This document shows positions 2,753-58,983 of a stretch of 64,000 nt of DNA, in pieces. Numbering within the stretch: the stretch's first letter is position 1; every line of letters begins with the position of its first letter. The notes beneath the pieces were generated by a model. That model worked only from the letters and a program-made list of their open reading frames with translations, had not been told where the DNA came from and did no database searches. Source of the stretch: a virus; IMG/VR virus record IMGVR_UViG_3300045988_126619, positions 32,001 through 96,000 of that record. One strand, 5' to 3'. The translations under genes and the position numbers were made by a program.

Positions 2753-2773
2753 AGATATCGCACCTCCAATCTT

Positions 2774-4544: not shown

Positions 4545-4585
4545 AATTTATCTTTCCTTTTTTGTAAACGTTTTCAATAAAAAAA

Positions 4586-5551
4586 CTAAAAATCATCTAT
4601 TTCGATGTCTTCATCATCGTAATCTTCATCATCATATGTAGGTTTCATTACTGTATACTTATCCATTTCTTCTAAGTATTCATCTTCATATGGACACTTA
4701 ACACCCATCATCCTACATAGATTTCCTAAAAACCAAACTAGCATATAATGTACCCAATTAACTTTTTGCCACTCTTCAAGTGGTTCTGGAATAGGTTTTT
4801 CATTTTCATATTTCTTTATTAATGTTCCCATTGTTACTTGTTCACTAGCCATAGTTGCTGATTCTTGGCTAGGTTTCATATTAGCTGAACCAAACAAGTT
4901 TTGTAATGTTGCTAATTCTTTATCAACACTCTTACCTGCTCGTCTTAGCTTATCTACAGTTAATCTTTGTTCTGCAATTTCCATAAAGAATGTTTCTGTA
5001 GAATAACCATCGGGTTCACCATAAGTCCTAATCATCTTATGATATTCTTTATCTAAGAATCTATAATCTTCGGGTGAACGATTTTCTCCCCAAAATTCAA
5101 TAAGATTTTCGTCAACCCCATCTGTATTTTGAATAGTTATTCCCATTCTTTCTAATTCGTCAGATGAATCAAAATCATCTCCAACACCTTGTTTAGCACC
5201 TATAGAATTTAACTTAGTAAAATATATTTGCCAAGCAGGTGTTCCTACTGCTCTTTTAGAGTTTTGTAACTCACTTAATGTTGCATCAACACATGATTGA
5301 TTGAAACACACATTTAATGCTCTACACATATAATATAAAGCTGTCTTTATATCTGCATAGTAATTAAAATACTTATCATAAATCTTACCAACACATTCTT
5401 TACATACAGGCAATTTTTCATAAGCACTATATATATCGGCATTAGATTTATAATAATATCTCTCTGTCTTTTCAGTACCACAACATACACATTTTATTAA
5501 TTTAGATGTTAATGTAGTTTTTGTGGTCTTTTTCTTTGTAGTTGTTGCCAT
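4586..5551 (-). CDS. putative terminase small subunit / zinc-ribbon DNA-recognition protein
   Basis: Position directly upstream of terL; N-terminal basic tail and CVCCG..CKEC zinc-ribbon; acidic C terminus. Confidence 0.35.
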   Translation of the reverse strand: MATTTKKKTTKTTLTSKLIKCVCCGTEKTERYYYKSNADIYSAYEKLPVCKECVGKIYDKYFNYYADIKTALYYMCRALNVCFNQSCVDATLSELQNSKRAVGTPAWQIYFTKLNSIGAKQGVGDDFDSSDELERMGITIQNTDGVDENLIEFWGENRSPEDYRFLDKEYHKMIRTYGEPDGYSTETFFMEIAEQRLTVDKLRRAGKSVDKELATLQNLFGSANMKPSQESATMASEQVTMGTLIKKYENEKPIPEPLEEWQKVNWVHYMLVWFLGNLCRMMGVKCPYEDEYLEEMDKYTVMKPTYDDEDYDDEDIEIDDF

Positions 5552-5615
5552 AAAATAATCTCCCCTTTTTATATTTTATGACCTAAATAATTCAATAACT
5601 TTTGTTAGATTTACT

Positions 5616-5879
5616 TTATCTTACTATCGCTTTATTTTCCCATTTCTTATAAGCATCAAAATACATAACATTCTTATCTCCATTATAAGTACATTCATAA
5701 TACATACCATCAAATAGAGTAGTGCTTAATAACGCCTTATTATTTTGTAAAGCCTTACAACTCCATACTACAAACACATCGTCTTCTGTAATATTTTTAT
5801 TATCAGACTTATCCAAATGGTCATTAGTATAATTACATATTTCTTGCTTACACCAATTTAAAAATTCCTTTTCATTCAT
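5616..5879 (-). CDS. hypothetical protein
   Basis: ORF track, AGGAG-type RBS, same-strand block. Confidence 0.6.
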   Translation of the reverse strand: MNEKEFLNWCKQEICNYTNDHLDKSDNKNITEDDVFVVWSCKALQNNKALLSTTLFDGMYYECTYNGDKNVMYFDAYKKWENKAIVR

Positions 5880-5902
5880 ATAAATACTCCTTTTAAAACC
5901 AA

Positions 5903-6364
5903 CTAAATTGTTTCTTCTTCTTCAACAGTTTCATAATTATTAGATTTACTTCTTACTTCTTCTAAAGCTTTTTTAATAGCATCTCTGATAGTTAATTTAA
6001 AGCATAAAGTTTTTGCTTCGGCTACCTTTTCTTTTGTATCTAATACTGAACCTAATTCTTCATCTTTTATCATTTTAGTTGCTATTGAAAAATCAACTTT
6101 TAAATCTTTGTCAATTTTAACAACCTTATTGTTTAATTTAAGCTTAATTGTTTCTCCGCTGTCCTTATCTTCTATTACGTCACCTTTACTATCTACAGAA
6201 AATTTACCTTCAAAAGTTAAATCCTTATATTCTATAGAAGTAGGAAAATTGATTAACATAGCTTCTTCTTCATTAGGTAAAATATCTACATTTCCTAATT
6301 CTTTGCATTTAACAGTCATATAAAAGACATTATTTTTAATATCCTTTTCGTATGATAAAACCAT
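5903..6364 (-). CDS. hypothetical protein
   Basis: ORF track, RBS GGAGGAAT upstream. Confidence 0.6.
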   Translation of the reverse strand: MVLSYEKDIKNNVFYMTVKCKELGNVDILPNEEEAMLINFPTSIEYKDLTFEGKFSVDSKGDVIEDKDSGETIKLKLNNKVVKIDKDLKVDFSIATKMIKDEELGSVLDTKEKVAEAKTLCFKLTIRDAIKKALEEVRSKSNNYETVEEEETI

Positions 6365-6386
6365 TGTAATTCCTCCTATAATAATA

Positions 6387-6659
6387 TTATTGTTGTTGTA
6401 AATTAATTTCTTTGCATCCCATTACCAGTTTGTATAACTGGTCTTTATCCATAACACATTCAAATTCTACATCCTCGAATTGCGTATCAAAGATATATAA
6501 CTTTGCAGTATTATCTTTTAGTAATTCAATTGCACAAGCTTTTGTACCTTGCATCTTTAATACAATCTTTTTCGCTTCTCTATTATTTTCAGAAGTATAA
6601 AGACGAATCATTTCTCCTTCTTTAAGTTCTGAAATATTCAATAAATTTCCAGTAAACAT
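6387..6659 (-). CDS. hypothetical protein
   Basis: ORF track, RBS AAGGAGG upstream. Confidence 0.55.
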   Translation of the reverse strand: MFTGNLLNISELKEGEMIRLYTSENNREAKKIVLKMQGTKACAIELLKDNTAKLYIFDTQFEDVEFECVMDKDQLYKLVMGCKEINLQQQ

Positions 6660-6717
6660 TTACATAAAACCTCCTTAATATATTTATATACATAAATAGA
6701 ACAGAATTAATCCTGTC

Positions 6718-7515
6718 CTATTCATTCACAACACATAGGTTTAGTTTATCAATGATATAATCTACACCTTTTCTAGTTAAATATGTTTTGCTATTGGCAT
6801 ATTTACAATTGATAGCTTTTACTTCGAAAATACCTTGTTCTAAATATTTTCTATATGGAACGTTTTTATTTTCTCCATTCTTCTGTAAATAGCCATTTTC
6901 TCTAAGCATATTAAACATATCATTTTGACCAACTCCTACAATAGCACCAAATGTTCTTATATTCATTAATCCGTCCGAATTAATATACTCGTCCCATTTT
7001 GAACTTTTTTCACCTTCAATTAAAAGCTGTTCTTCTAATTGTTTATTTTGTTTTATTGCTGTAAAGTAAGCTATTGCTCTATCTTCTTCGCTCATATTAA
7101 GATATCCAGTTAATGCAGAATTGTTAGCATTAATTAATTTTTGTTCAAGTTCATTTATATATTCAATTGTCTTTGCTCTCACAATAGCTGATTCTGAATT
7201 TAACATTTGTAACATACCATCACGGTTTAAACTAAAACATGGCTGTTCTTTATTTTGTTTATTGATATATGACGACTCCAAAATATTTTGGTGTCCTTCT
7301 AAACCTAGTGTTTCCAATACTTCTAGTTCTTTTCTAATTTTAGTCATAAAACTATCATGTCTTAATTCAACATACTTGTCTTTCTTATTTAATCCTTTTT
7401 CTTTTAATATTTCAAATTCTTCTTCTCTAAATTGATTAATAATTTCAACCAATTCTACACTTGTAATTCTTAATTCTTTTGTTTGTTCTGTAATTTCCAA
7501 TAATTCCTTAGACAT
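6718..7515 (-). CDS. phage antirepressor (Rha-like N domain + KilAC C domain)
   Basis: N-terminal ITSVELVEIINQFREEE resembles Rha. C-terminal LMNIRTFGAIVGVGQNDMFNMLRENGYLQ...YRKYLEQGIFEVK resembles KilAC. Confidence 0.7.
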   Translation of the reverse strand: MSKELLEITEQTKELRITSVELVEIINQFREEEFEILKEKGLNKKDKYVELRHDSFMTKIRKELEVLETLGLEGHQNILESSYINKQNKEQPCFSLNRDGMLQMLNSESAIVRAKTIEYINELEQKLINANNSALTGYLNMSEEDRAIAYFTAIKQNKQLEEQLLIEGEKSSKWDEYINSDGLMNIRTFGAIVGVGQNDMFNMLRENGYLQKNGENKNVPYRKYLEQGIFEVKAINCKYANSKTYLTRKGVDYIIDKLNLCVVNE

Positions 7516-7702
7516 TTCTTTTCCTCTTTTCTATATAAATTTTTTGTGGGATTTATATAGATTCATATAAATCCTTATGACAGGAGCAAAACCCCACATA
7601 TTCTACTCTCTGTCAATGTCTAAGAATAGAACAGTTTTACTGCTCTCATAAAGATTTATATTGTTTATTTTGTGTTTGTATTGAATACTCTATTGTAAAT
7701 TA

Positions 7703-7731
7703 ATTATAACATATCATTTATTTTATGTCAA
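7703..7731 (-). promoter_or_regulatory. sigmaA-type promoter carrying the conserved motif
   Basis: TTGACA-17-TATAAT on the minus strand; the spacer holds AAAATAAATGATA. A second motif variant sits at 7659-7674. Confidence 0.6.
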
Positions 7732-7783
7732 CTATTTTTTTATATGATGTAGGGAAGAAATTCCTCCCTACATATTTGTATCT

Positions 7784-8125
7784 CTAAATTGTTCCACTTA
7801 CTTGTTGTTGTATTGCTCCAAGTTTTGCAACTTCTACGTTATTTTTAGAAGTAGATTCATTAATACATATAGCGTGAGCCATATCTTCTTCCATTCCTGC
7901 ACTAATTAAAGCTAAATACATTCCTGCATATCTTGAACCAATTTTAGCACCTTCTGCTAATTCCTTAACATCATAAGCTAATCCTCTTAAATTAGTTGTA
8001 TCCATACATGGAATTTCAGCTAATTTCTTAACTATTTCAACTAATTCTTCTTGTGAGTAATCTTCTAAATCTCTAGGCATTTCTTTTACTTTTTCTTCTA
8101 CTTGTTTATTATTTTCTCTTTCCAT
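7784..8125 (-). CDS. hypothetical protein
   Basis: ORF track; followed by hairpin GTAGGGAAGAAATTCCTCCCTAC at 7750-7772. Confidence 0.6.
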   Translation of the reverse strand: MERENNKQVEEKVKEMPRDLEDYSQEELVEIVKKLAEIPCMDTTNLRGLAYDVKELAEGAKIGSRYAGMYLALISAGMEEDMAHAICINESTSKNNVEVAKLGAIQQQVSGTI

Positions 8126-8137
8126 ATACAGTCACCT

Positions 8138-8713
8138 CTAACACATTATTTTATCTATTACTCCTAATTCTAACGCAGTTTCTGCATCAAAGAAGAAGTT
8201 TTCTTTTCTATCATATATTTCGTTGATACGTTCACGTGGAATTTTTGTAAGCTTTGCATAATAATCAGCGGATTTCTCCCAAAGTTTCTTTTGAAATTCA
8301 ACTTCTCTTTCAAATTCCTTTAGTTCTCCACCTTGTCCAAATGATGTTTGATGTAATAGATATTGACTTAATCCATATCCAATACGTTCATCACAATGAA
8401 TTATTATGTCAAATGCCATTGAATAAGCAATAGATTCAACTACACCAATAACCTTTATTTTATGTTTTTGTAATCTCTTAATATTACCTATAATAGCATT
8501 ACCATGAATAACACTTCCACCATATGAGTTAATTAATAATGTAACTGTTTTTATTTTTTTATCTTTCATTCCTAAACTATCGTAAGATTTATTATTCTCA
8601 ATAATTTTGTTAGCATAATAAGAAACTGCTACTGCCATTTCCTCATTTACTACACCATTTAAATATATTCTGCCTTGATTTGCGGAAGCGTGTTCCATCT
8701 CCATTATATTCAT
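8138..8713 (-). CDS. ClpP-family serine protease
   Basis: INSYGGSV, SIAYSMAFD (Ser) and LLHQTS (His) match the ClpP signatures INSPGGSV / HQP. Confidence 0.75.
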   Translation of the reverse strand: MNIMEMEHASANQGRIYLNGVVNEEMAVAVSYYANKIIENNKSYDSLGMKDKKIKTVTLLINSYGGSVIHGNAIIGNIKRLQKHKIKVIGVVESIAYSMAFDIIIHCDERIGYGLSQYLLHQTSFGQGGELKEFEREVEFQKKLWEKSADYYAKLTKIPRERINEIYDRKENFFFDAETALELGVIDKIMC

Positions 8714-8751
8714 ATTCTTCTACCCATTACCTATAAGGTATCTTTCTTTTT

Positions 8752-9957
8752 TTAATTTAAAACCATTGTATAAGTTTCTGTTATTCCCACATTTTCTTCA
8801 ATCTTAAATAATTTACACATAGCTTTTGAACCAACCATTAACTTATCAGCATAAGGGTCAGAACCTACAAAGCTAGGACATACAACTATTTCAGTATTTC
8901 CATTTAATTCTCCAACACTTAAAGATTGCCCACCATGAAAATGTCCCATAAAGCATAAATCATAAAATCTCTTATGTCTAACAGAAAAATCTTTGATTAC
9001 TTCTTTTATGTTCTTTATTTGATGTCCATGTAGTGTTATAATATTTTGACCACATAAACTGAAAGAATCATAGTCATAAAGAGATAATTTAACTTCTATT
9101 CTCTTATTTTCTGATACTAAATCAGATATATAATTTCCTATAATGTATTCCATATCTTCACTTGGCATTTCATTTGCTTTTGTTCCTAAATATCTGCATT
9201 GAGAGTGATTTGAGTTCATAGTATGTCTATATGTTATATAAACACATTTAGATAATTCATTTAAGAATGTAGCTATTAATCTGCTCACTTCAACTACTGC
9301 ATGAACTACTGGAACATCATTCAATTTAACGTCAGATATTCTTAACATTCCTTGTATAGAATCTCCTAATCCTATAACAGTAATGTGTGAAATTTTATTC
9401 TTTTTCACTATTTGTTTTGTCTTTTCTAATAGTATTTCAAATCTAAGTTTAACTTCATCTCTTGAATAACAATTGTTGTCTGATTCAAAATCAGCATTAT
9501 AATGAATGTCTGATAGTGCTAATAGATATTCTCCATTATTATCATTATGGATTTGAATTTTATCAAACTTTGGAAGTGGTAATGTTTCTATAGCATCCCT
9601 AACATTCTCATAAAACAATTCATATCTTGCATCTTTTGTATTATTTCTATTATATTCTACTTTCGTAGCTTGCATTTTCTTTCTAGCAATATCTAATTCT
9701 TTTATTTTTTCATCTAATTTCTTTAATTCTATTTCGTTACCATTTGTTGCAAACTCTTTTTCCCTGCAATAATATCCTTGATTAAAATTAGTAGCAGGAC
9801 ATCTAACGCTAGATTCTGATAATTGTGTTCCTGTGTTTTCTTTTATAATGTCATAAACCTGCAAATTATTTAAATTTAAATTTTCTTTTAATCTATAACA
9901 TCTAGCTGAATATTCAACAAATGATTCATCTTCTTTCTTAGTTAATCTCTTATCCAT
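8752..9957 (-). CDS. calcineurin-like metallophosphoesterase with N-terminal extension
   Basis: LALSDIHY, GLGDSIQG, TLHGHQ and GHFHGG motifs. Confidence 0.7.
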   Translation of the reverse strand: MDKRLTKKEDESFVEYSARCYRLKENLNLNNLQVYDIIKENTGTQLSESSVRCPATNFNQGYYCREKEFATNGNEIELKKLDEKIKELDIARKKMQATKVEYNRNNTKDARYELFYENVRDAIETLPLPKFDKIQIHNDNNGEYLLALSDIHYNADFESDNNCYSRDEVKLRFEILLEKTKQIVKKNKISHITVIGLGDSIQGMLRISDVKLNDVPVVHAVVEVSRLIATFLNELSKCVYITYRHTMNSNHSQCRYLGTKANEMPSEDMEYIIGNYISDLVSENKRIEVKLSLYDYDSFSLCGQNIITLHGHQIKNIKEVIKDFSVRHKRFYDLCFMGHFHGGQSLSVGELNGNTEIVVCPSFVGSDPYADKLMVGSKAMCKLFKIEENVGITETYTMVLN

Positions 9958-9980
9958 ATTTTTCTCCCCTATTGTTTATC

Positions 9981-10286
9981 TTATTTATAATATGATAAAT
10001 CTATTCTCATTAATCTCTCATTTAAAAATTCTTCATCTACTGCAAACCATTCATGATTATCTAAAATTCTTCTACTATTCAACATTGTATGAAGATGTTT
10101 CTCCAATAATTTATAATTTGAACATTGAATTTTAGTTAAAATCACTAATTCATCATTTATTCCATTAAATTTAAAGGAACGTTGTATTTGCTTAAATCTA
10201 TTGTCTATATTCTTTGAGCATCCAACTTTAATAACCATTTTGTCTTTAGTTGATTTTGTTTTATTTATAATAATATAAACGCCCAT
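9981..10286 (-). CDS. T5orf172 / GIY-YIG-like small nuclease-domain protein
   Basis: MGVYIIIN..IKVGCSKNIDNRFKQIQ pattern. Confidence 0.55.
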   Translation of the reverse strand: MGVYIIINKTKSTKDKMVIKVGCSKNIDNRFKQIQRSFKFNGINDELVILTKIQCSNYKLLEKHLHTMLNSRRILDNHEWFAVDEEFLNERLMRIDLSYYK

Positions 10287-10622
10287 TTTTACTTTCTATT
10301 ATATAAACAAATATTGTATCTATTACAATTTTATATTCAAATGTCCATTAAACAACTTTCTCACCTTTTAATTAATTCACCATTTAAAACCAAATTGATA
10401 AATTGTAATAAATAATTATAACTTGTACTCTAAAAAATAATATATTATTTGTAAGCTGTAACCTGTTATTTTGTCTGCATTACTTTTTCCTAAAAATTTA
10501 TTTTTTTAACTTGTTAGAATTTTACTTTACCTAATATAGTATATGTAAACAAGCTAGGAGCATTTATAAAAACACTCCTATCAAGCTACAGTAACAGAAT
10601 ACAATATTTGTTATAAACTATT

Positions 10623-11129
10623 TTATATTTCTACAAAAGTAGTTGCGTTAACCTGTTGAATAAGTGTTTCTAAATCTGATATTTCATCAACTAAAGATTG
10701 TTTTTCAGCTTTAATAACATCTATATCATAGTTTAGGTCAACTACTCTATAATATGAACTACTTCCATTTCCATCAAATTTCCTGCTCAATGAAGGTGCT
10801 TTACTAGACAAAGTTTCAAATAGTTCCAATTCTTTTCTCAAACTAGAAACCGTATTGATAGCTTCAATAATAGTCATATCTTCTTTGACTTTAACAGTTG
10901 CGTTCATTTTAGCTAATATATTTTTATATTTTGTCAATGTATTTAATTCTGATTTATATTTTGATAAAACCTCTTCAAAGTCTTTCACATCTACTAAAAC
11001 TTGTTCAGTTCCATCTAATTCTCTATCTTTTGTTATTGTACAATTGTTCATTACATCATAACGTAATGCACTCATGTCTTTTGATTTTTGATTAATAATC
11101 AATAATAAATTTGATAATGTTACTCTCAT
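10623..11129 (-). CDS. coiled-coil hypothetical protein
   Basis: Track ORF trimmed to ATG 11129, preceded by AAAGGGGAA. The upstream part of the track ORF overlaps a separate small gene. Confidence 0.55.
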   Translation of the reverse strand: MRVTLSNLLLIINQKSKDMSALRYDVMNNCTITKDRELDGTEQVLVDVKDFEEVLSKYKSELNTLTKYKNILAKMNATVKVKEDMTIIEAINTVSSLRKELELFETLSSKAPSLSRKFDGNGSSSYYRVVDLNYDIDVIKAEKQSLVDEISDLETLIQQVNATTFVEI

Positions 11130-11157
11130 ACTTATCATTCCCCTTTTCATCTTTTTA

Positions 11158-11313
11158 TTAAATCTCTTTCGGTTTTGTCTGACACCCACAAACTGGACAA
11201 TAAAACATATATTTATTACCAATTTTGTCATAGTCTTTATTTTTCATATATTCATCTACATTTATTAAAGTTTTACAGTTTTCACATTTTATACCATGGT
11301 ATTTCTTCTTCAC
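11158..11313 (-). CDS. small zinc-ribbon protein (51 aa)
   Basis: GTG start with AAGGAG 8 nt upstream. Sequence KKKYHGIKCENCK...YCPVCGCQTKPKEI carries two CxxC pairs. Too short for the ORF track. Confidence 0.45.
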   Translation of the reverse strand: MKKKYHGIKCENCKTLINVDEYMKNKDYDKIGNKYMFYCPVCGCQTKPKEI

Positions 11314-11469
11314 TTTAATCAACTCCTTACATATATTACATTATGGGAGGGGTACGAATACCCCAAACCATATAAATATGAAAGAGAGAAAAATAATATG
11401 AAAAATATGAATATCAATTAAGAACAAACAGACACGGATACTGTTTGCTCTATTATGGATACTCAAAAA

Positions 11470-11544
11470 TGGCAGGTGGACTAGGAATCGAACCTAGACA
11501 AACAATTTTGGAGATTGTCATTCTAGCCATTAAATTACCCACCC
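11470..11544 (-). tRNA. tRNA-Trp (anticodon CCA), CCA encoded
   Basis: Cloverleaf by eye: acceptor GGGTGGG/TCCACCT, anticodon arm ACAAT-CTCCAAA-ATTGT, T arm CTAGG-TTCGATT-CCTAG. Confidence 0.85.
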
Positions 11545-11564
11545 ACATAAAAGAAAGACGAAGA

Positions 11565-11801
11565 TTATTCCTCGTCTTCACTTTCTTCTTCTACTTTAGC
11601 TAAATCACTTTCACTAACTGGTGTGTCTGCCTCTGTTATTACAACCTTCACATAGGCATTATCTACCCCTGCCATATCACATAATTTAGATAACTTCACA
11701 GGCACAGCAAACTCTTCTGATTCTAATGTCATTTTTTCAGTATCTAAGAATCCACTCGCTACTATCCCTGCCCCTTTAATTGTGATTGCACTTTTTGCCA
11801 T
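11565..11801 (-). CDS. hypothetical protein, acidic C terminus
   Basis: ORF track. Motif variant ATAAAATAAACAATA (11819-11833) and GGGGA RBS lie upstream. Confidence 0.6.
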   Translation of the reverse strand: MAKSAITIKGAGIVASGFLDTEKMTLESEEFAVPVKLSKLCDMAGVDNAYVKVVITEADTPVSESDLAKVEEESEDEE

Positions 11802-11842
11802 ATTTAATTGTCCCCTTTTATTGTTTATTTTATTTACAAAAA

Positions 11843-13297
11843 TTATAATTCTATTGTGAAATCTAATTCTGAAACAAAAACCTTTGTAGTTCTATTATTT
11901 TCAGATAACATATCTTCTAATTTTGCTTTTAATTCTTCTTTTGCTTCATCTTCACCGTGCATCAAAACTACTTTATTACAATTGCATTGTTTAATATAGT
12001 TTATCAAATCTGTTTGGCTTGCATGAGAACTAAAAGTATTAAATCTTCTAATATTACAATGTTTGATTAATATATCTTTTTTATCAAATTCAACCTTATC
12101 AAGTGTTTCATCTAATATTTGCCCACCTATACAATTAGGAGAACAATAACCACAAAATAATATACTAGAATTAGTTTGTCCTAATAATCTATGAGCATGA
12201 AGTGTACTTCTTCCTCCACTAATCATCCCGCTACTAGATAGTATTACTGCTTGCTGTTTTTTACTCATGAAAGCGATACTAGCATCATAACTATCTATAA
12301 ATTTAAAACATTCCCAATTAATTACTTGTTTCCAATATTCTAATTCTTCACCTTCTAAAATAGAGAATAATGCTTTATTTATTTTACATCCCAAATTTGT
12401 ATCAATAACAATTGGTATTTCTCTATTCCAACTATCTTTAAATGTATCATATAGATAACACATTATATTTTGAAGTCTGTGTTGAGCGAATACTGGAATT
12501 AATACAGAACCATTTCTGTCTAACGTTTGAATGATTTCTTTTTTAAATTCTTCACGTTCTCTTATACAGTCCTGTTTAGTGAAGTTTCTATCACCTTTAC
12601 CATAAGTAGATTCTAAAAATACAACATCTGCTTTAGCTACATTAATAGTAGGTTTAACAAAATAATTAAATTGGAAATTATCAGTATTACCTAAATCTCC
12701 CGAAAACAATATCTTTTTAACAGTATTTGTTCCATATTTTTTAATATATAAAACCAACTGTGTTGCTCCCATCATATGGCTATTATCTACATATTGAAAA
12801 GAAACATATTCGTCAACTTTAATTATTTCATTCATAGAAACTTCTTCTATTTTATCTAATACTTTCCACATATCTTGAGTTGTATATAGTGGTTTACATT
12901 TCTTTCCTGTTTGTTTTAAATATTTACAATCATCTTCATGTATTTTTGTTCCATCTTTCAACATTACTGGTGCTATAGTTTTATTTGCATTATTCATAAA
13001 TATTTTTCCTGCAAATTCTTTTACATTTAAATAAGGTAATCCTCCAACATGGTCTTGGTGATTATGTGTTACAAAAACATATTCAGCATATTTAATTGGT
13101 ATGTTTTCAAACATCTTTTTATTGTCCATATATTCATCCCATTTAGAACCACCTTGACAAGTTCCTAAATCTACTAATAAATGTTTTCTACCTTCTTGTG
13201 TCATGTAAGACACCATTGTACATGAACCTGTTACTTGGTGACTTTGTGAGCCACACGTAATACATATGATTTTATTATCTTTCCTCTTTTTACCCAT
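11843..13297 (-). CDS. MBL-fold beta-CASP nuclease (RNase J / CPSF / Artemis-like)
   Basis: HNHQDHVGG (HxHxDH) in the N-terminal third. 484 aa, matching the beta-CASP architecture. Confidence 0.75.
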   Translation of the reverse strand: MGKKRKDNKIICITCGSQSHQVTGSCTMVSYMTQEGRKHLLVDLGTCQGGSKWDEYMDNKKMFENIPIKYAEYVFVTHNHQDHVGGLPYLNVKEFAGKIFMNNANKTIAPVMLKDGTKIHEDDCKYLKQTGKKCKPLYTTQDMWKVLDKIEEVSMNEIIKVDEYVSFQYVDNSHMMGATQLVLYIKKYGTNTVKKILFSGDLGNTDNFQFNYFVKPTINVAKADVVFLESTYGKGDRNFTKQDCIREREEFKKEIIQTLDRNGSVLIPVFAQHRLQNIMCYLYDTFKDSWNREIPIVIDTNLGCKINKALFSILEGEELEYWKQVINWECFKFIDSYDASIAFMSKKQQAVILSSSGMISGGRSTLHAHRLLGQTNSSILFCGYCSPNCIGGQILDETLDKVEFDKKDILIKHCNIRRFNTFSSHASQTDLINYIKQCNCNKVVLMHGEDEAKEELKAKLEDMLSENNRTTKVFVSELDFTIEL

Positions 13298-13826: not shown

Positions 13827-13881
13827 ATGTTTCCTTTATTTATAAAAAAACAAAGGAATAAATACATGAACTTTAACACGT

Positions 13882-13954
13882 TGGAAATTATAGGACTTGA
13901 ACCTACATCTCTCCGACTACTACGGAGTGCTTTCACCAGTTAAACTAAACTTCC
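13882..13954 (-). tRNA. tRNA with anticodon GUA (Tyr-like) and atypical loop
   Basis: Full cloverleaf: GGAAGTT/AATTTCC, D arm GTTT..AAGC, anticodon arm CTCCG-TAGTAGT-CGGAG, T arm GTAGG-TTCAAGT-CCTAT. A at position 33, short variable arm. Confidence 0.65.
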
Positions 13955-14040
13955 ATATAAATCCTATTTCTTTTTCGTCTGTGTGAAATAGGTAAATGTC
14001 ACCAGTATACTATAATATATTATCAAGGAGGTGTTTATTA

Positions 14041-14092
14041 GGGAAATCAAGGAATCGAACCTCTTTTAATGTTTAACCATAAACAATTTCCC
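14041..14092 (-). ncRNA. D-arm-less tRNA-like element (pseudo-tRNA?)
   Basis: GGGAAAT / TGTTT-ATGGTTA-AAACA / TTAAA / AGAGG-TTCGATT-CCTTG / ATTTCCC. 52 nt. Confidence 0.4.
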
Positions 14093-14128
14093 ATGTTAAA
14101 AGATAAGAAATTAATCTTACCTTAATAT

Positions 14129-14203
14129 TGGCGAGGATAGGTGGAAGTCGAACCACCGTTCACAGGTTAACAGCCTGTTGTTCTACCATTGGACTATATC
14201 CTC
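14129..14203 (-). tRNA. tRNA-Asn (GUU), CCA encoded
   Basis: GAGGATA/TATCCTC acceptor, ACAGG-CTGTTAA-CCTGT, GGTGG-TTCGACT-TCCACC. Confidence 0.9.
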
Positions 14204-15111
14204 ATATTATTATCTTTGAAGGCTTTTAGATTCTATCCTTCTTCTTGACTTTCAGAAGACTTACTGTCTATCTCCCTTATCCACTAACTCATGCTAGTAT
14301 CAAGAAATGCCTGCTATTTTATATACCGTTAGCTTTTACGGTCTACTAATATACTACTCTACAGTTCGCATTATACTTGCCTTGCGAGCAATTAAGGATT
14401 GGCTAAATCCAAATACGCTGTTCCTTATAAAGTAATTAAGTCCTTGCGAGAACTCCATTACACTTTGTTACATCTCTGCCAAAGTATTAAGACACTTTCG
14501 TATATTAGGAAGAAGAATTTTCGCTTTAGTTATTTGTATTTCAAATAAAATATGATATCCTCAATCATCACTTAAATCTGCTATATTCTTCTTAACTTTT
14601 CCAAACAGAAGTCACATCTTCTTAGTTGTTTCCTTGCCTTTTGAGCAAAGCTATACAACAGCGACTTCGATGCTTTCACTCAATTTATAAGTTACTAACG
14701 GTTCTATAAGATACTTTAGGATACTCCCTATTTTTCTTATACAACTGGTTATCGCACTTGTGTAAATTTCACTCGTACTATTTAACCTTACACTTTAGAT
14801 TTTCCATTTCACTAGTTTAGCGTGAACTATCCAATTGCTAGTTGGAAGATTTCATTCTTTGGTTATTCCATTACTCTCTTGTCATTCCTAGCTTATAGGA
14901 CTTTACCATATTGCTGACTATATTTTCACTTAACCAATATGATAAACATTTAAATCTTGTGTATTGCTTGAATTGACCATAAATGGCGAATGGTTGTTAG
15001 CCACCCTTTACATATATTACTATATGCTATCTGTGTCAAGCCACAATACGCACCTATATTAGTGTACCAGTTACTTTTATTTTAAAGAGTTAAAGTAACA
15101 AACTTTCTTCT
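14204..15111 (-). ncRNA. candidate very large structured ncRNA (GOLLD/ROOL-like context)
   Basis: 908 nt with no ORF of 60 aa or more on either strand. Abutted by tRNA-Glu and tRNA-Asn on the same strand. Less AT-rich than its surroundings. Local hairpins and GNRA-type loops are present. Confidence 0.5.
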
Positions 15112-15186
15112 TGGTACTCCATAGCAGAATTGAACTGCTGTCTTCACCGTGAAAGGGTGATGGCTTAACCACTTGCCTAATGGAGC
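15112..15186 (-). tRNA. tRNA-Glu (UUC), CCA encoded
   Basis: GCTCCAT/ATGGAGT, TCACC-CTTTCAC-GGTGA, GCAG-TTCAATT-CTGC. Confidence 0.9.
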
Positions 15187-15202
15187 ATATTAAAAGATTT
15201 TA

Positions 15203-15276
15203 TGGAGCAGTAATCGAGAATCGAACTCGAAACTTCGGGTCGGAAGCACGACATTTTACCATTAAACTATTACTGC
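15203..15276 (-). tRNA. tRNA-Gly (UCC), CCA encoded
   Basis: GCAGTAA/TTACTGC, anticodon loop CTTCCGA, TCGAG-TTCGATT-CTCGA. Confidence 0.85.
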
Positions 15277-15320
15277 TCGTTTTATCTTTCGTTATTATTT
15301 TTCTGTTTCTCTTTCGTTCT

Positions 15321-15413
15321 TGGCGGAGAATGTAGGATTCGAACCTACGATACCCTATTTAAGAGTATGACAGATTAGCAATCTGCTGTCTTAAACCACT
15401 CGACCAATTCTCC
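15321..15413 (-). tRNA. tRNA-Ser (GCU), class II long variable arm, CCA encoded
   Basis: GGAGAAT/ATTCTCC, GCAGA-TTGCTAA-TCTGT, long variable arm, GTAGG-TTCGAAT-CCTAC. Confidence 0.9.
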
Positions 15414-15615
15414 ATATTAATTACTCATAAAATAACTTCTCCTAAAAAGAGTGACATATTTCAGCCACTCTAAAAAGGAGAGTATTAATTATGAAAGAGA
15501 GGTATAAAAATTGAAAAGTTTGACCTCGAAAGGTCAATGGTATAAAAACTTTTTTAAAGTTATTATCTTTTGTTATTTGATAATTTCACCATTGGTTTAT
15601 TATCACTTTTTCTGT

Positions 15616-15630: not shown

Positions 15631-15730
15631 GTTTGAAAAGAGAACCTATAAACTACTATCTGTTTCTCGTTCTCTTTTCACAATACAACTTTCAAAATGC
15701 CTATAAACCGCACCATTGAGCCATTCTTTG

Positions 15731-15783
15731 AAAAAATAAAAAAGTAGCACACCCTTCAACCCTAGTGTTCATGCGGGTTTGCT
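15731..15783 (-). terminator. rho-independent terminator after the GIY-YIG gene
   Basis: AGCAAACCC...GGGTGTGCT stem followed by a long T-run on the minus strand. Confidence 0.55.
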
Positions 15784-15803: not shown

Positions 15804-16244
15804 TTATTTTTCATTTAGCACGTATATATTCTTTTCTTTCAATAATAACAATACGGTTTCTAAATCTTCTTTTCTTATTTTTATTCTAATATATTCTTTA
15901 TGATTATTAAAATTGTATTCATATAATTCTTGATTATATATATTTTTTTTATATATATTAATGTAAACCCTTTCTTTAATATTTAATTCTTCTTTGCTAA
16001 ATGCGTAATCTACATTTTTATATACTTCAAAATTTTTAAACCCATATTGTTCTATATCATTGATTAATTCATCATTACTTCTTTTTTCTCTTCTTCTAGT
16101 ATTATAAAATTTTTCAATGTCACTAAATCCTTTACCTCTATACCTTCCATTAAATCCATTCTTATTAGAAGTTTTTCCTATATATACCTTATTGTTTATT
16201 TTATTTACAACTTTGTATATTACTCCATATATTTTATTTTTCAT
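15804..16244 (-). CDS. GIY-YIG homing-endonuclease-like protein
   Basis: IYGVIYKVVNKINNKVYIGKT...GRYRG. Start moved to ATG 16244 (GGAGAAGGGA RBS). Overlaps the RNAP gene end by 11 nt. Confidence 0.7.
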   Translation of the reverse strand: MKNKIYGVIYKVVNKINNKVYIGKTSNKNGFNGRYRGKGFSDIEKFYNTRRREKRSNDELINDIEQYGFKNFEVYKNVDYAFSKEELNIKERVYINIYKKNIYNQELYEYNFNNHKEYIRIKIRKEDLETVLLLLKEKNIYVLNEK

Positions 16245-19122
16245 TCCCTTCTCCTTTCCTTCTAGTTCTATTATCAATTGTTTTTTCTATATTGACTTTT
16301 TTTGAACATTCATTACAATATTTTTGTCTAGGACTATTACTTTTAAACCTTTCTCCACATTCATTACATATCCTGTATCCTTTTTCTAATGACTTATAAT
16401 CAATGTTATCATTTATATTATTTATTATAGTATCACCAAATACATTAAATATAAATGTAAGATTATTTTCATGATTTAAAAAAGCATCCTTTACAATATA
16501 GTCAACCATGTCATTATAATCTATTCCTTTTTCTTTAGCATATATAATGAAAGATTCTTTTGCATCTATATATACATCTGTTTTTATATCACTTTTTGTT
16601 GTTGCATTTTCCTCTGCTTTCGCTCTTGTTCTTATCTTATCTTTAGTTTGACTTTCTATTTCTTCATATTTAGTTAATACAAAAGCTAAGTCTTTTACAT
16701 TTTTATTATGCAACAATGTTTCTAATTTAAATGTTCCAAATCCTTTCTTATAACTAAATCTTTTATATTTAACATGGTCTATACTTTTACATATTCTATC
16801 TATAACACCATTTCCTATTTCTCTACATTCATTATCTTTTTTATCTTTAGCAAATTTAAAGAAATGTGGATAATCATTATTATTCATTAACTGCTTAATA
16901 TCTTGTGGCAATCTTGGAAGTTCTAATTTTTTAGCAGAATCAATAATCCAGTTATTATATGCACATAATTTCTTTATTTCATCTTCTTTATCTTCATATC
17001 TATGTTGAGAAGTTATATTAGTAAGAGTATTAGAAACTTTACCTATATTAGATTTCTTATATACGAACTCTAATGATTTGAATATATTATTAATAGTTAA
17101 TTGTTTAGCTTCACCACCACCCATTTCATAGTACAATGGTCTAATATCTTTCATTTGTTCTTCTGCTAAATCTAACAACCATTTTTGCTTTGCATTATCC
17201 TTTACTACTAAAGCTTCATCACCATCCCAATCGCACATAAGAACTAAACTCATAAAATCTTTTGCAGAAACATATATAGCCTTAGTATTAAAGTAATTTG
17301 ATTTAGTATTACTAGCCTTATTCTTAGCCATAAACCATTCTCTACTTAAATGTGGACTTCTTAATAATGCCAATCTTTCACTATCTTTATATTCTTCAAA
17401 ATAAACTTCATTTGCTTCTAAATAATAATCTGAACCATCCCCAAATAATAAACTTGAAAAATGTATTAAATCTGGAATTATAAAAACTCTTTTTGCATTT
17501 AAATCTATTCTTCCACTTTTTGCATCTTTTCTATAGCTTGCTAAAACATCACGAACTTGATTTTTTACATATTTACTTGTAAGCATTTCTGGATATAACA
17601 TTAATGCAGTTTGGAAATTATTTTTTCTTTTATTTGATTTTGTAGCAGATAATAATTTTAATTGAGAATCCCTATCTACATGAACATCTTCTATTAATTT
17701 CTTAGTGTCGGCAGTTAAATATTCTATTTGTTCATCTGTCATATCTGTAAGAGTTTGCAACATCTGATAGTTAATATTCATATCCTTTAATCTTGGTTCA
17801 TCTTGCATACATATATTAAATGTGCAATTATATTTCTTAAAGTTTTCCTTATATTCATCCCAATCTTTATAATATTTCCATAACTTGAATTGAGATTTTG
17901 TGAATATTATTTGTATATCATCTTCTACAACATCATATTCTTTTCCATATATATCTTTTACTTTTGTAGATAAATTATTTTCTTTTATATATCTTAAATA
18001 GTTGAATGGACATACTAAACCTTTAAACCAAGGTAATCTTATTTGTGTGTTCTTTTTAAATATTTTAGTAAGACAAATTCCTGCTCCATCCATGAAATCT
18101 ATAGATATATCCATAACTTGTCTAGTTATTTCCCAATCAGTCTTATATACTGTTTTAGTTCTAACACCATTTTCATCATATACACATTTCTTTTCATCTA
18201 AAATTTTATCATCTCTGCTAATATAATCAACTTCACCTCTTATTAATGAAGAATAATCATCAACTACTATACATTTATCAATATCAAAATCTTCATATAT
18301 TTCAGATGCAGAATTGTTAAGACTTAAATAAGCACAGAACTTGTTTGCGTTCATACCTCCCATTTCATTTATTTTATCTATAGTAAGACCACACATTAAA
18401 TGTTTTTCTGTAGTTTCCCATAAATCTTCTTTAATCATCATGAATTTCTTTTGTCTAGTTTGTCCTGCTCCTGCTGTAAAGAATTTATATCTATATTCAT
18501 TACTAGATATTAATTCTCCTGTTTCTTCATCTATTTTTTCATCAACTATAGTAATACCATTTTTAATTACTTGTTCTGTAATTATCATATCAGTATTTCC
18601 TACTTCCATTACTATAAAATCTAATGTTGGTTTATTTTCATCAGCTAATTCTAATCCCAATTCTTGTTTTCTAGCTTTTATAGTTCTTATTGTAGCGTTA
18701 TCAAAAAATGTTATTTCATTCTTTATTCTAAAATCTTTAGTATATACAGTTCTGAATTTATTTTTCTTAATCTCTTCCTTTATTTTATGTGTCACGTCTG
18801 CATATTCTTCTTTTACTTCGCTATATACTAAAGTTTCTTCTGTAATAATAGTTTCTTTTTTACCATTAATCCATTTAATAGTATCAATTTCAATAGTAGT
18901 AGGAACTTCTTCTAATTTTTTCATATATTCTTTACGTTCTTCTGTAGAAATTTCTTCTCCTAAATCCTCATTTACAATTTCTTTATGTTTCTTTTTTAAT
19001 AAATAAGTTCTGTGATTTAATTGATATTGTAAATTATATAATTCTTTTTCATATTCAGTTTTTGTTAATCCTAATCCAATAGAATATAATTTTGTTTGTT
19101 TATTCATAGCCATATTTTTCAT
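16234..19122 (-). CDS. candidate single-subunit two-barrel RNA polymerase (YonO-like)
   Basis: LLRSPHLSREW followed about 45 aa later by MCDWDGDEALVV (17218-17232). This mirrors beta-prime NRAPTLHR...NADFDGDQMAVH. 962 aa with a C-terminal CNECG..CNEC zinc ribbon. Confidence 0.6.
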   Translation of the reverse strand: MKNMAMNKQTKLYSIGLGLTKTEYEKELYNLQYQLNHRTYLLKKKHKEIVNEDLGEEISTEERKEYMKKLEEVPTTIEIDTIKWINGKKETIITEETLVYSEVKEEYADVTHKIKEEIKKNKFRTVYTKDFRIKNEITFFDNATIRTIKARKQELGLELADENKPTLDFIVMEVGNTDMIITEQVIKNGITIVDEKIDEETGELISSNEYRYKFFTAGAGQTRQKKFMMIKEDLWETTEKHLMCGLTIDKINEMGGMNANKFCAYLSLNNSASEIYEDFDIDKCIVVDDYSSLIRGEVDYISRDDKILDEKKCVYDENGVRTKTVYKTDWEITRQVMDISIDFMDGAGICLTKIFKKNTQIRLPWFKGLVCPFNYLRYIKENNLSTKVKDIYGKEYDVVEDDIQIIFTKSQFKLWKYYKDWDEYKENFKKYNCTFNICMQDEPRLKDMNINYQMLQTLTDMTDEQIEYLTADTKKLIEDVHVDRDSQLKLLSATKSNKRKNNFQTALMLYPEMLTSKYVKNQVRDVLASYRKDAKSGRIDLNAKRVFIIPDLIHFSSLLFGDGSDYYLEANEVYFEEYKDSERLALLRSPHLSREWFMAKNKASNTKSNYFNTKAIYVSAKDFMSLVLMCDWDGDEALVVKDNAKQKWLLDLAEEQMKDIRPLYYEMGGGEAKQLTINNIFKSLEFVYKKSNIGKVSNTLTNITSQHRYEDKEDEIKKLCAYNNWIIDSAKKLELPRLPQDIKQLMNNNDYPHFFKFAKDKKDNECREIGNGVIDRICKSIDHVKYKRFSYKKGFGTFKLETLLHNKNVKDLAFVLTKYEEIESQTKDKIRTRAKAEENATTKSDIKTDVYIDAKESFIIYAKEKGIDYNDMVDYIVKDAFLNHENNLTFIFNVFGDTIINNINDNIDYKSLEKGYRICNECGERFKSNSPRQKYCNECSKKVNIEKTIDNRTRRKGEGNEK

Positions 19123-19132
19123 ACCTCTCTCT

Positions 19133-19147
19133 TATCATTTATTTTAT
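19133..19147 (-). promoter_or_regulatory. conserved motif directly upstream of the RNAP gene RBS
   Basis: CATAAAATAAATGATAAGAGAGAGGTATG. The motif overlaps the stop codon of the upstream gene, and no TATAAT follows. Confidence 0.5.
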
Positions 19148-19704
19148 GTTAACATATTTTTATAATAATCAATTTGTAATAATTGTCCCCTTAATTCATT
19201 ATAAAACTTATGCAATTTTGAATTATGGTATTTAAACCATTCTTCTTTATTATCTTCTACCATAAATCTTCTCATATCTGTAGCAGATATCTTTAATTTA
19301 CTTCTTGACACAATTATTTCCGTAATATCTTTTATATCCTCTCCATCAAACCATTTGGAACGACATTCCTCATTTCCATATATCATCAATTCGGGATATT
19401 TATATATATACTGTTTTGTTTTATCAAGTAAATATCTACCCCAATCAGTACATATATCATTTTCGTGTGATATATCAGCTATAGGTTTAACTATAACATT
19501 ATCACTTGGATAAATTTCTTTTATCATTCTAATTCTTGTAGCAACGTCAAATGGATTTCTTTCTGTTCCATCTTCTTGAGAAGAACCAACTAATATTAAT
19601 ATTCTATCAGCCATATTTAAAGCTGTATTAATCAGATTTTCATGACCTTGATGAATGATTTGAAATCTTCCACATAACATTGCTATATCATAATATCTAT
19701 TCAT
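19144..19704 (-). CDS. nicotinamide-nucleotide adenylyltransferase (NadM/NadR-type)
   Basis: GRFQIIHQGHENLI and ISATDMRR signatures. Confidence 0.8.
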   Translation of the reverse strand: MNRYYDIAMLCGRFQIIHQGHENLINTALNMADRILILVGSSQEDGTERNPFDVATRIRMIKEIYPSDNVIVKPIADISHENDICTDWGRYLLDKTKQYIYKYPELMIYGNEECRSKWFDGEDIKDITEIIVSRSKLKISATDMRRFMVEDNKEEWFKYHNSKLHKFYNELRGQLLQIDYYKNMLT

Positions 19705-19867: not shown

Positions 19868-19896
19868 ATATTATCATTTATTTTATGCTTTGTCAA
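19868..19896 (-). promoter_or_regulatory. sigmaA-type promoter with motif in spacer
   Basis: TTGACA-17-TAATAT, spacer AAGCATAAAATAAATGA. Followed by leader hairpin 19843-19871. Confidence 0.6.
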
Positions 19897-58005: not shown

Positions 58006-58983
58006 ATGAAAATGGAAAAATTTAAACAATATATAGAAGAAACAACAAACGAAGGGCAATTAAATAAGTATCAAAAAAATAAATTACAATGGCTTTATGA
58101 TAGTAAATATTCATATAATTCAAAATTGAATTTTTGGAAATTATTTAAAAGAAATGTTGATTTTGTAGAGTTGGAAAAGAATAAAGATGTTTATGATTTT
58201 GATAGACAAGAAATAATTGATTTAATTAAAAACACACCTACGACAAAAGTTTCAACAAAGTTAACAATATTTAGTATGATAAGTAGGTATATTGATTGGG
58301 CGGTTCAAAGAGGATTTAATTACATGGGTAATCCTTGCGATACTATCAATGTACACAAGATTTTAGATATTGATACAGAGGTAACAAAGGAACAATATAA
58401 ATCTCTACATGACTTTTATGATTGGTTAGGACAATTAAAAAGAGCAACACCAGTTGATAAAATGATTTTATTAATGTTGAGATATGGTATAGATGTCAAA
58501 AATATTGGAGAAATAAAAATGCAAGATATGGATATAGAAAAGAATATTTTACATTGTAAAAATGGTGATATAGAAGTATCCTTACCTATTGATGAAGAAT
58601 TTATTCAGATGGCAATAAAATCTAATGAATGTATAGAATCAGATGATGTAAGTTATATTGTTTCAGACTATATTGCAAAAGTACAAACAAATATGCAAGT
58701 TCCGACTTTAGATAAAACAGTAATTTATAACAGGATTAATGTTATTTTTAAAAGAGCAGAAGAAAAAAGAATATCTATTCCTTTATTAAATTTAAGTAGA
58801 AGATATGACATCTTATATAACAAATATCTTCTTAACGGAGAAGTTACAATTGATGATGTAAAGGAAACATTAAAGATATTTAATGGTAAATTTACACCAA
58901 ATCAAGCGTTAACATTAAAAAGGAATTTTGAATTGGCGATGGGTGGAGAAATTAAAGTCAATACATTTAGAACAAGAAAATAA
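58006..58983 (+). CDS. integrase-like protein with apparently degenerate catalytic domain
   Basis: N-terminal core-binding-like region (ISRYIDWAVQRGF..GNPC) and LLMLRYGIDVKNIGEIK box I-like R. No clear HxxR..Y by eye. Confidence 0.35.
   Translation: MKMEKFKQYIEETTNEGQLNKYQKNKLQWLYDSKYSYNSKLNFWKLFKRNVDFVELEKNKDVYDFDRQEIIDLIKNTPTTKVSTKLTIFSMISRYIDWAVQRGFNYMGNPCDTINVHKILDIDTEVTKEQYKSLHDFYDWLGQLKRATPVDKMILLMLRYGIDVKNIGEIKMQDMDIEKNILHCKNGDIEVSLPIDEEFIQMAIKSNECIESDDVSYIVSDYIAKVQTNMQVPTLDKTVIYNRINVIFKRAEEKRISIPLLNLSRRYDILYNKYLLNGEVTIDDVKETLKIFNGKFTPNQALTLKRNFELAMGGEIKVNTFRTRK

Follow-up and report, generated by a model that had tools for sequence, protein, structure and literature searches.

The 64,000-nucleotide (nt) window analyzed here covers positions 32,001 to 96,000 of the virus record IMGVR_UViG_3300045988_126619 in IMG/VR. 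On its minus strand, an open reading frame (ORF) of 962 codons, counted from the first ATG, lies between a cytidylyl/adenylyltransferase-like gene and a GIY-YIG homing endonuclease gene. The encoded protein is predicted from its sequence to be a YonO-family single-chain, two-barrel RNA polymerase, a family that had been described before together with its activity and role. The initial annotation had proposed a YonO-type single-subunit RNA polymerase as a candidate for this gene, which is now borne out by homology to YonO of the Bacillus subtilis phage SPbeta, the catalytic residues, a fold shared with QDE-1 and RDR2, and synteny with SPbeta. The ORF, the LLRSPHLSREW motif, DWDGD at exactly 17218-17232, and the overlapping GIY-YIG gene were all confirmed from the sequence. 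An identical polymerase was found on ~159-kb contigs from Clostridium butyricum and human-gut assemblies, and we read the element as a temperate, SPbeta-like phage or plasmid-prophage of this species with a size of ~159 kb. Because the first ATG of the ORF directly follows a Shine-Dalgarno-like GAGAGGT, an identical database copy (P0001, Clostridium butyricum, 100% identity) has 959 amino acids, and the N-termini of the homologs start with MNKQ, the true start is probably codon 4, at 19113, giving a protein of 959 residues.

In a BLASTP comparison with SPbeta YonO, residues 121-940 of the protein aligned with residues 77-820 of YonO at 34% identity over 826 residues (E=5e-129), and a tblastn search against SPbeta and its relatives reached 1e-112. 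The alignment pairs LLRSPHLSRE with ILRSPHLFRE, CDWDGD with FDNDGD, and both C-terminal CxxC pairs, so that the RSPHL...DxDGD signature, the D/R/K set of the first barrel, and CxxC..CxxC are common to the two proteins. The protein also has an end-to-end match to PHROG 8308 (E=3e-215), a family without an assigned function. We then aligned 47 homologous sequences with 36-61% identity, and the invariant columns include D345, R362, K367, R588, P590, E595, D631, D633, G634, D635, and four cysteines. As the key residues are invariant in these homologs and aligned with YonO, LLRSPHLSREW and DWDGD are not chance strings. The protein also differs from YonO in being ~120 residues longer, with residues 1-120 unaligned, and in carrying a 24-residue insert at ~304-327 in a long beta-hairpin.

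Eight residues are invariant in two-barrel RNA polymerases, namely D709, R738, K743, R962, P964, D1007, D1009, and D1011 in QDE-1 (Iyer 2003; Ruprich-Robert & Thuriaux 2010; PMC2919709). All eight are present here as D345, R362, K367, R588, P590, D631, D633, and D635, and all are identical in YonO. By alignment rather than by three-dimensional superposition, D345, R362, and K367 match QDE-1 D709, R738, and K743 in order and spacing, with the lysine five residues past the arginine in both proteins and the distance from the second arginine to the first aspartate of the triad being 43 residues here and 45 in QDE-1. The R588-x-P590 element corresponds to R962/P964 in QDE-1 and R446/P448 in Rpb1 (PMC2919709). 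DWDGD, contained in MCDWDGDEALVV (residues 629-640), lies 43 residues past LLRSPHLSREW, close to the ~45 first estimated. Another feature shared by QDE-1 and the YonO-like proteins is that no acidic residue precedes the first-barrel aspartate (M344-D345 here). Pfam gave only weak zinc-ribbon matches to the protein. The gene had been described as ending in a zinc ribbon; the CxxC...CxxC element is indeed present with invariant cysteines, but it is located near the C-terminus rather than at it, since ~22 helical residues follow in the structural model.

Neither the protein nor the 47-member alignment retrieved anything relevant from the Protein Data Bank (PDB) in sequence and profile searches, and no YonO-family structure appears to be deposited there. 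An AlphaFold2 model built on the 47-homolog alignment had a mean predicted local distance difference test score of 87.4 and a predicted template modeling (TM) score of 0.78. When this model was compared with the PDB by Foldseek, the best matches were maize and Arabidopsis RDR2 and fungal QDE-1 (PDB 2J7N, 7W82, and 7EU1), with E=1e-18 to 1e-11, a probability of 1.00, and TM scores of ~0.4-0.5 over ~850-1000 columns. Maize RDR2 ranked first (E=1e-18, TM 0.50 over 877 columns), and QDE-1 matched at 1e-11 to 1e-15. In the model, DWDGD sits in a helix-to-strand loop, as in the metal-site barrel, and the pattern of strands and helices around RSP fits as well. The predicted fold is thus two double-psi beta-barrels in one catalytic core, carried on a single chain with DxDGD and the eight invariant residues, as in QDE-1 and RDR2. 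No unrelated family turned up in these searches, and the DWDGD loop agrees with the barrel context.

The initial annotation had drawn parallels both to QDE-1 and to the beta-prime subunit of multisubunit RNA polymerases. The former is strong, whereas beta-prime is a distant relative, appearing in Foldseek only marginally (E=0.02-1, TM<0.1, compared with 1e-18 for RDR2). The Pfam model RNA_pol_Rpb1 did not match the protein, and neither the crAss nor the AR9 polymerases were among the top structure matches. The cellular beta/beta-prime enzymes, the phiKZ/AR9 non-virion RNA polymerases, and crAss-like gp66 have the same two-barrel core, in which NRAPTLHR...NADFDGD parallels R-x-P...DxDGD, but beta/beta-prime and the divided phage enzymes are built from four or five subunits rather than one chain. 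Homology to the clamp, flap, and trigger loop is likewise undetectable, as stated for YonO (PMC5467207).

Given that the closest structures are RNA-dependent RNA polymerases, we considered whether the protein copies or amplifies RNA in the manner of QDE-1 and RDR2. The Pfam model of these enzymes, PF05183, is reached by 18 of the 47 homologs at E<=0.01 (best 6.6e-18), while the window polymerase does not match it even at E<=1, making it a relative and no formal member. Several phage records name a homolog 'RNA-dependent RNA polymerase', and proteins with this name were found by Foldseek among predicted viral structures (5e-33). On the other hand, sequence identity to QDE-1 and RDR2 is ~12% in the structural alignments, so that YonO (E=5e-129) is far closer than any of them; these enzymes use RNA or single-stranded templates in silencing pathways, whereas the window protein is encoded by a double-stranded DNA phage, in which its gene heads the late region exactly as in SPbeta. 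YonO, the only characterized member of the family and the nearest characterized relative, was purified and shown to be a strictly DNA-dependent, highly processive RNA polymerase with an essential aspartate triad, of which an Asp-to-Asn mutant is inactive (Forrest et al. 2017, PMC5467207). Deletion of yonO silences 37 late (structural and lysis) genes of SPbeta; they form one operon, and its single start site precedes an unannotated noncoding RNA and yonK (PMC5467207). Because the only characterized member strongly prefers DNA and is needed for late-gene transcription, we regard a role in copying RNA as very unlikely, and DNA-dependent RNA synthesis, biochemically demonstrated for YonO, is the activity we would expect of the window protein, which is known from its sequence and model.

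The features of the locus are listed in Table 1. By gene order, the polymerase gene occupies the place of yonO in an SPbeta-like temperate element: the packaging and structural genes lie downstream of it on the same strand, as they do behind yonO in SPbeta, where the order is yonO, yonN, a 1.7-kb non-coding gap, yonK, and yonJ through yonF (terminase). In both elements, the gene heads the late region, and a stem-loop and a stretch of non-coding RNA come right behind it. Relatives with a 45-60% identical polymerase encode YonK, YonJ, and YonG domains downstream, together with the maintenance genes Rep3, ParB, and tubulin. The differences from SPbeta are that the host here is Clostridium, that plasmid-type maintenance genes are present (the window encodes a TubZ-like tubulin, and relatives encode Rep3 and ParB), that a GIY-YIG endonuclease gene is joined to the 3' end of yonO, and that tRNAs and a GOLLD-like RNA take the place of yonN and the 1.7-kb gap. 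The tubulin here and Rep3/ParB in relatives suggest that the prophage is maintained like a plasmid, and a tyrosine recombinase is also encoded in the window.

Table 1. Features of the window and related sites; coordinates are those of the 64,000-nt window unless a locus number precedes them.
Feature	Position	Strand	Evidence or remark
Portal gene	1217-2704	-	
Large-terminase-like gene	2774-4174	-	
YonJ-like exonuclease gene	8752-9957	-	
tRNA-Trp	11470-11544	-	
Beta-CASP nuclease gene	11843-13297	-	
Late-type genes, co-oriented, downstream of polymerase gene	1217..13297	-	Order as SPbeta yonJ...yonF
RNA island: tRNA-Ser, Gly, Glu, Asn, Tyr and GOLLD-like RNA	13880..15413	-	Rfam; conserved in L007
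ORF-free gap holding GOLLD-like RNA	14204-15111; Rfam-matched part 14220-14669	-	~900 nt
Conserved post-yonO element	15438..15555	-	~100% identity to L007
Terminator-like hairpin and T-run, right after endonuclease gene	15730..15783	-	Read from sequence
GIY-YIG homing-endonuclease gene, free-standing, 146 codons	15804..16244	-	Begins MKNKIYGVIYKVVNKINNKVYIGKT; ATG 11 nt before polymerase stop
yonO-like gene, predicted single-chain two-barrel RNA polymerase	16234..19122	-	BLASTP, PHROG 8308, AlphaFold2, Foldseek
Zinc-ribbon-like CxxC-13-CxxC, C919-x2-C922...C936-x2-C939	16303..16368	-	Four invariant Cys; conserved in YonO
DWDGD, residues 631-635, catalytic triad D631/D633/D635	17218..17232	-	Invariant in homologs; aligned with YonO DNDGD
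LLRSPHLSREW, residues 586-596, R588-x-P590 element of metal-binding barrel	17335..17367	-	Alignment with YonO and homologs
First-barrel invariant D345 (18088-18090), R362 (18037-18039), K367 (18022-18024)	18022..18090	-	In FMDGAG...IRLPWFKGL
Perfect copy of ACATAAAATAAATGATAAG, class B	19131..19149	-	Contains stop codon of upstream gene; abuts ribosome-binding site
Cytidylyl/adenylyl-transferase-like gene, directly upstream	19144..19704	-	PHROG 395, E=1e-21; Pfam CTP_transf_like on record
Probable host-type promoter: TTGACA, 17 nt containing A/T-rich motif, TAATAT	19868..19896	-	Class-A motif copy
MerR-family regulator gene	29912-30595	-	At divergent strand switch, ~30.7 kb
Winged-helix protein gene	30871-31164	+	At divergent strand switch, ~30.7 kb
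TubZ-like tubulin gene	31168-32256	+	At divergent strand switch, ~30.7 kb
MrpR-like protein gene, 325 aa, tyrosine-recombinase-fold repressor family	58006..58983	+	Pfam MrpR_N_CB 3e-10, above cutoff
Skipping-rope RNA sites in other loci	L022:9704-9776; L054:6949-7039; L061:6949-7038		

The cytidylyltransferase gene is probably the first gene of the polymerase operon. The host-type promoter in front of it probably drives the cytidylyltransferase, yonO-like, and endonuclease genes, and with a copy of the motif described below in its spacer, synthesis of the polymerase would be controlled by a repressor, as in SPbeta. At the other end of the operon, the endonuclease ORF was recognized by PHROG homing-endonuclease families (1e-8) and aligns with a Pfam-positive GIY-YIG protein of the window (E=2e-4), although Pfam returned nothing for the ORF itself at E<=0.01. 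The endonuclease gene is kept in all four near-identical public copies of the element and is absent after yonO in the related loci L006-L009. A simple terminator scan missed the hairpin behind it, as the loop is long; a stem-loop right after yonO is also annotated in SPbeta.

The initial annotation had noted a conserved motif in front of the polymerase gene and suggested that the polymerase is its reader. The motif, ACATAAAATAAATGATAAG, is A/T-rich and occurs 38 times in the window at <=3 mismatches, compared with 0.5 copies expected, and every copy is co-oriented with the local genes. The perfect copy upstream of the polymerase gene ends 8 nt before the first ATG, within the 0-12 nt that had been described, and is not accompanied by promoter hexamers. 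Two main classes of placement were distinguished. In class A, which comprises 13 of the 38 copies, the motif is embedded in near-perfect sigma-A promoters, forming the spacer or the -10 box; either TTGACA lies 2 nt upstream and the 3' end of the motif is TATAAT or TAATAT, or the ACA of the motif is the last part of TTGACA, with TATAAT 17 nt further on. In class B, to which 10 copies belong and among them that of the polymerase gene, the motif has no promoter hexamers and runs into the ribosome-binding site. We rejected the idea that it is a mere Shine-Dalgarno site, the 19-nt element lying upstream of the ribosome-binding site. Many of the copies lie among small early-type genes, and few lie in the late region; further examples are found at 22231-22249 and 27119-27137 on the minus strand and at 35260-35278 and 48183-48201 on the plus strand. 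The closest relative (L007) has kept the motif, also before its yonO, whereas it is absent around yonO in L006, L008, and L009, whose YonO proteins are 45-55% identical, and in the SPbeta locus.

This arrangement resembles that of SPBRE, which is repeated in ~10 promoter regions of SPbeta, one of them at yonP, shortly before yonO. Chromatin affinity purification sequencing (ChAP-seq) showed that the master repressor MrpR binds SPBRE (Kohm et al. 2023, PMC10516654). In the SPbeta locus, the SPBRE copies we saw are A/T-rich, start with ACA, and end with ATGTATA; at yonP and yonT they overlap the -10 box, and at yonX the copy abuts the ribosome-binding site. ACATAAAATAAATGATAAG is likewise A/T-rich, starts with ACA, ends with ...ATG.ATA, is oriented with the genes of many intergenic regions, and occurs in the same two placements, with one copy that would control the operon of the polymerase gene. 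A repeated operator, putative here, of the same kind lies in the upstream promoters of both elements. The two differ in that the sequence here is not the same and is ~5 nt shorter, and in that the 64-kb window holds ~4 times as many copies as the ~10 sites of the whole SPbeta genome. MrpR is the master repressor of SPbeta and has a tyrosine-recombinase fold without recombinase function. A member of the MrpR family is encoded in the same genome as the window motif, and this protein matches the solved structures of SPbeta MrpR/YopR (8A0A/8BJ6) at E=1.5e-5. Considering the 13 copies in sigma-A promoters, the resemblance to SPBRE, and the MrpR-like protein, ACATAAAATAAATGATAAG is more likely a putative operator of the MrpR-like repressor than the promoter of this polymerase.

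The alternative is that the polymerase takes ACATAAAATAAATGATAAG as its own promoter in the style of T7 RNA polymerase and transcribes most phage genes, including its own. The promoter of YonO is still unknown, and a motif so over-represented, uniformly gene-oriented, and retained in L007 even before yonO would suit such a reader; its length and conservation are like those of a T7-type promoter, and the class-B ends ...ATAAG|GAG recall ...TATA|GGGAGA. However, in a third of the copies the motif supplies the spacer or -10 box of near-perfect TTGACA-17-TATAAT host promoters, and there are few copies in the late region, the part that YonO reads from a single start in SPbeta. It is also absent from L006, L008, L009, and the SPbeta start-site region, and a transcript initiated inside a class-B copy would have almost no leader before the ribosome-binding site. 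With the style and both placements matching the MrpR-bound SPBRE and an MrpR-like protein encoded here, the proposal that the polymerase reads the motif is not supported, and we consider a T7-style use of it unlikely.

Three further observations concern repeated elements. Several copies of ACATAAAATAAATGATAAG occur as pairs ~50 nt apart, in which a promoter copy is followed by a hairpin (GTGGTTAG...) and a second copy (24163/24112 and 22249/22199). At ~46400-53700 on the plus strand, a run of small genes is preceded by near-identical cassettes of TTGACA, motif, and TATAAT, followed by AAAAGGTGGTAATA, and this run looks like an array of paralogs or cassettes. Relatives without the window motif have a repeated intergenic word of their own, AACAAATTAATGTA in L008 (14 copies) and AAATAAATTGAAAA in L006 (12 copies), located just upstream of a -35 box or a ribosome-binding site, which suggests lineage-specific pairs of operator and repressor in related phages.

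The polymerase itself would start downstream of its own gene, where a candidate region lies. Past yonO, a block of ~120-150 nt shares almost 100% identity with L007, compared with ~60% in its flanks. From its upstream end, the element consists of a T-rich TATACCA (15538-15544), hairpin 1 (15520-15537), AAC, a CT-rich tract ending in ACTCTCC (15477-15483), hairpin 2 (15448-15471), and TTTTTAGGAGA. The same architecture is found 263-326 nt after yonO in L006-L010 and L020 (for example, at L006:13100, L007:13168, L008:13093, and L009:13107), where the stem sequence of hairpin 1 differs by lineage and the structure is kept. An exact scan for TATACCA plus hairpin located the element in six of 85 loci, all in the closest clade (the near-identical L002-L005 were left out), so as defined it is no family-wide feature. 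The element may serve as the late promoter or a leader, or it may be a small RNA, perhaps of the anti-Shine-Dalgarno kind. For the promoter of a YonO enzyme, these clostridial loci provide a short candidate region of ~120 nt with a strong footprint.

For comparison, the SPbeta start site (genome position 2225998) was bracketed to L001:9099-9291 in the SPbeta locus via published primer sequences; an exact-match scan for it in a representative-genome collection gave no matches. In the SPbeta yonN-yonK gap, the window motif and the clostridial element had only chance-level or weak counterparts, namely a CT-rich tract and TAAAATAAgTGATATG at L001:9515, a position not covered by the start-site bracket. 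A blastn search of this gap against all loci found nothing, and MAFFT alignments of four to five sequences of the post-yonO element and of skipping-rope RNA placed the hairpins in inconsistent registers.

Downstream of the candidate region, five tRNAs, the ORF-free ~900 nt, and a sixth tRNA follow on one strand. The GOLLD-like RNA (RF02032) in the gap matches the whole model (1-416) with 110.1 bits and E=1.5e-29 and has the signature loops, with the score being below the 150-bit cutoff; the same RNA at L007:14357-14810 also spans the whole model and has the loops, scoring 121.5 bits, likewise below this cutoff (E=1e-29 to 1e-31 for the two). We then asked what follows yonO in 80 other viral yonO loci, of which many are relatives of each other. 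When 28 diverse viral loci were searched at Rfam thresholds, every match was downstream of and co-oriented with yonO, including tRNAs, a ROOL RNA (384 bits, L073), a transfer-messenger RNA (L065), and three skipping-rope RNAs. ARAGORN found 62 tRNAs in 35 of the 80 loci, and all 62 were downstream and co-oriented despite equal flanks. Using a validated ROOL sequence, nhmmer detected full-length copies in 25 of the 80 loci, always 2-2.7 kb past yonO and co-oriented; these loci are among L031-L075, and the RNA comes right after tRNA-Met/Thr (for example, L073:8984-9587).

Two observations on smaller RNAs belong to the same region. Skipping-rope RNA (RF02924) lies a few hundred to a few thousand nt past yonO in Bacillus-type loci. 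In the SPbeta yonN-yonK gap, a DUF3800-VIII RNA was found above threshold and a skipping-rope match below it (L001:8820-8929 and 10174-10239).

GOLLD and ROOL RNAs occur near phage tRNA islands and form nanocages, and their function is unknown; no link to a polymerase is made in the papers describing this (PMC12286853, PMC5737381). The GOLLD-like RNA here and in L007, ROOL in 25 of 80 loci, the 62 of 62 tRNAs downstream, and the SPbeta start before a noncoding RNA together led us to the tentative idea, which we hold at somewhat less than even odds, that YonO-type polymerases are dedicated transcribers of structured-RNA islands (tRNA arrays, GOLLD, ROOL) as well as of late genes. A polymerase starting in or near 15.44-15.56 kb would read the five tRNAs and the ~900-nt GOLLD-like RNA before the packaging genes. 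In cellular polymerases, the flap domain mediates hairpin-dependent pausing and termination. A little-pausing enzyme without a flap domain would suit hairpin-dense templates. ROOL and GOLLD are among the largest bacterial non-coding RNAs, and their repeated occurrence past a phage polymerase gene suggests what makes them and when.

Could the enzyme then have a narrower job, transcribing the RNA island only or acting like a primase, with the host polymerase reading the late protein genes? The tRNAs and large ornate RNAs stand immediately downstream and co-oriented in many yonO loci, the polymerase gene adjoins helicase and nucleotide-metabolism genes, and the late region contains a perfect sigma-A promoter at 7731. 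Yet the 37 genes silenced by the yonO deletion in SPbeta are structural and lysis genes of one operon, the gene order is conserved here, and nothing ties the family to priming, making this the least probable of the alternatives. Sigma-A-type sites scoring >=11/12 number one in the 15.8-kb late region and 18 on the right arm, and this scarcity of host-type promoters in the late region is what reliance on a different polymerase would produce. A Pfam scan of 20 window proteins, which was not exhaustive, revealed no sigma factor.

Taken together, these results are best explained by a YonO-family enzyme serving the late region of an SPbeta-like Clostridium element, to which we assign a probability of about 0.82. 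The enzyme would be a ~110-kDa single polypeptide that uses two double-psi barrels to make RNA from a DNA template with two magnesium ions, which would be held by D631/D633/D635 and D345, with R362, K367, R588, and P590 completing the active site. By analogy with SPbeta, in which SPBRE in the yonP promoter just upstream of yonO parallels the promoter/operator logic here, the host polymerase would first transcribe the short operon of cytidylyltransferase, polymerase, and homing endonuclease from the sigma-A promoter near 19.9 kb. The A/T-rich operator lies in the spacer of this promoter, which the MrpR-like repressor would keep shut in the lysogen. The polymerase would then start downstream of its own gene, past the terminator-like hairpin and probably in or near 15.44-15.56 kb, and proceed leftwards through the tRNA/GOLLD-like island into the packaging and structural genes. 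While the homology, active-site residues, fold, and gene order are read directly from the comparisons above, we infer the DNA dependence, the timing, the start site, and the genes transcribed. Several points weigh against this explanation. The window polymerase itself reaches no Pfam model, its best structural matches are RNA-dependent enzymes, and its template preference rests on a YonO that is 34% identical. The perfect sigma-A promoter at 7731 is inside the late region, and the left early region is also poor in sigma-A sites at the strict threshold, which weakens the argument from promoter depletion. Furthermore, the SPbeta start-site region has no alignable similarity to the clostridial element, and the start region proposed here is a guess.

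Homologs of the protein are numerous, with at least 2294 protein matches and at least 488 viral contigs, and Firmicute phage and bacterial homologs had already been noted in 2003-2010 (PMC2919709). Every close database copy is labeled 'hypothetical' or, misleadingly, 'RNA-dependent RNA polymerase', so these results allow better annotation, and ACATAAAATAAATGATAAG together with the MrpR-like protein would extend the repressor/operator scheme of SPbeta to Clostridium. YonO homologs with 48% identity are also carried on 35-39-kb Clostridium perfringens plasmids (PLSDB H40-H48), all annotated as hypothetical; these plasmids are far smaller than SPbeta-like phages.

Mobile insertions were seen in and near yonO. 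The gene is split in several SPbeta-like phages, namely BUCT083, phi3T, Goe11/14, and SPbetaL3-7, which gave two-piece matches. In BUCT083 (L090, 2245-3534), a 1.3-kb insert encoding a GIY-YIG nuclease, which matched no intron model in Rfam, breaks yonO at ENNFTID|FAKTL, the most conserved C-terminal motif of the yonO product. Given this insert and the endonuclease gene at the 3' end of the window's polymerase gene, homing elements seem to target yonO as a hotspot. The window also contains, two genes upstream of the polymerase gene, an IS605-family TnpB-like gene (20897-22156, minus strand) with an adjacent RAGATH-18 RNA (20785-20850, 71 bits). This insertion is present in the window and L004 and absent at the site in the near-identical L002 and L003, indicating that it is recent.

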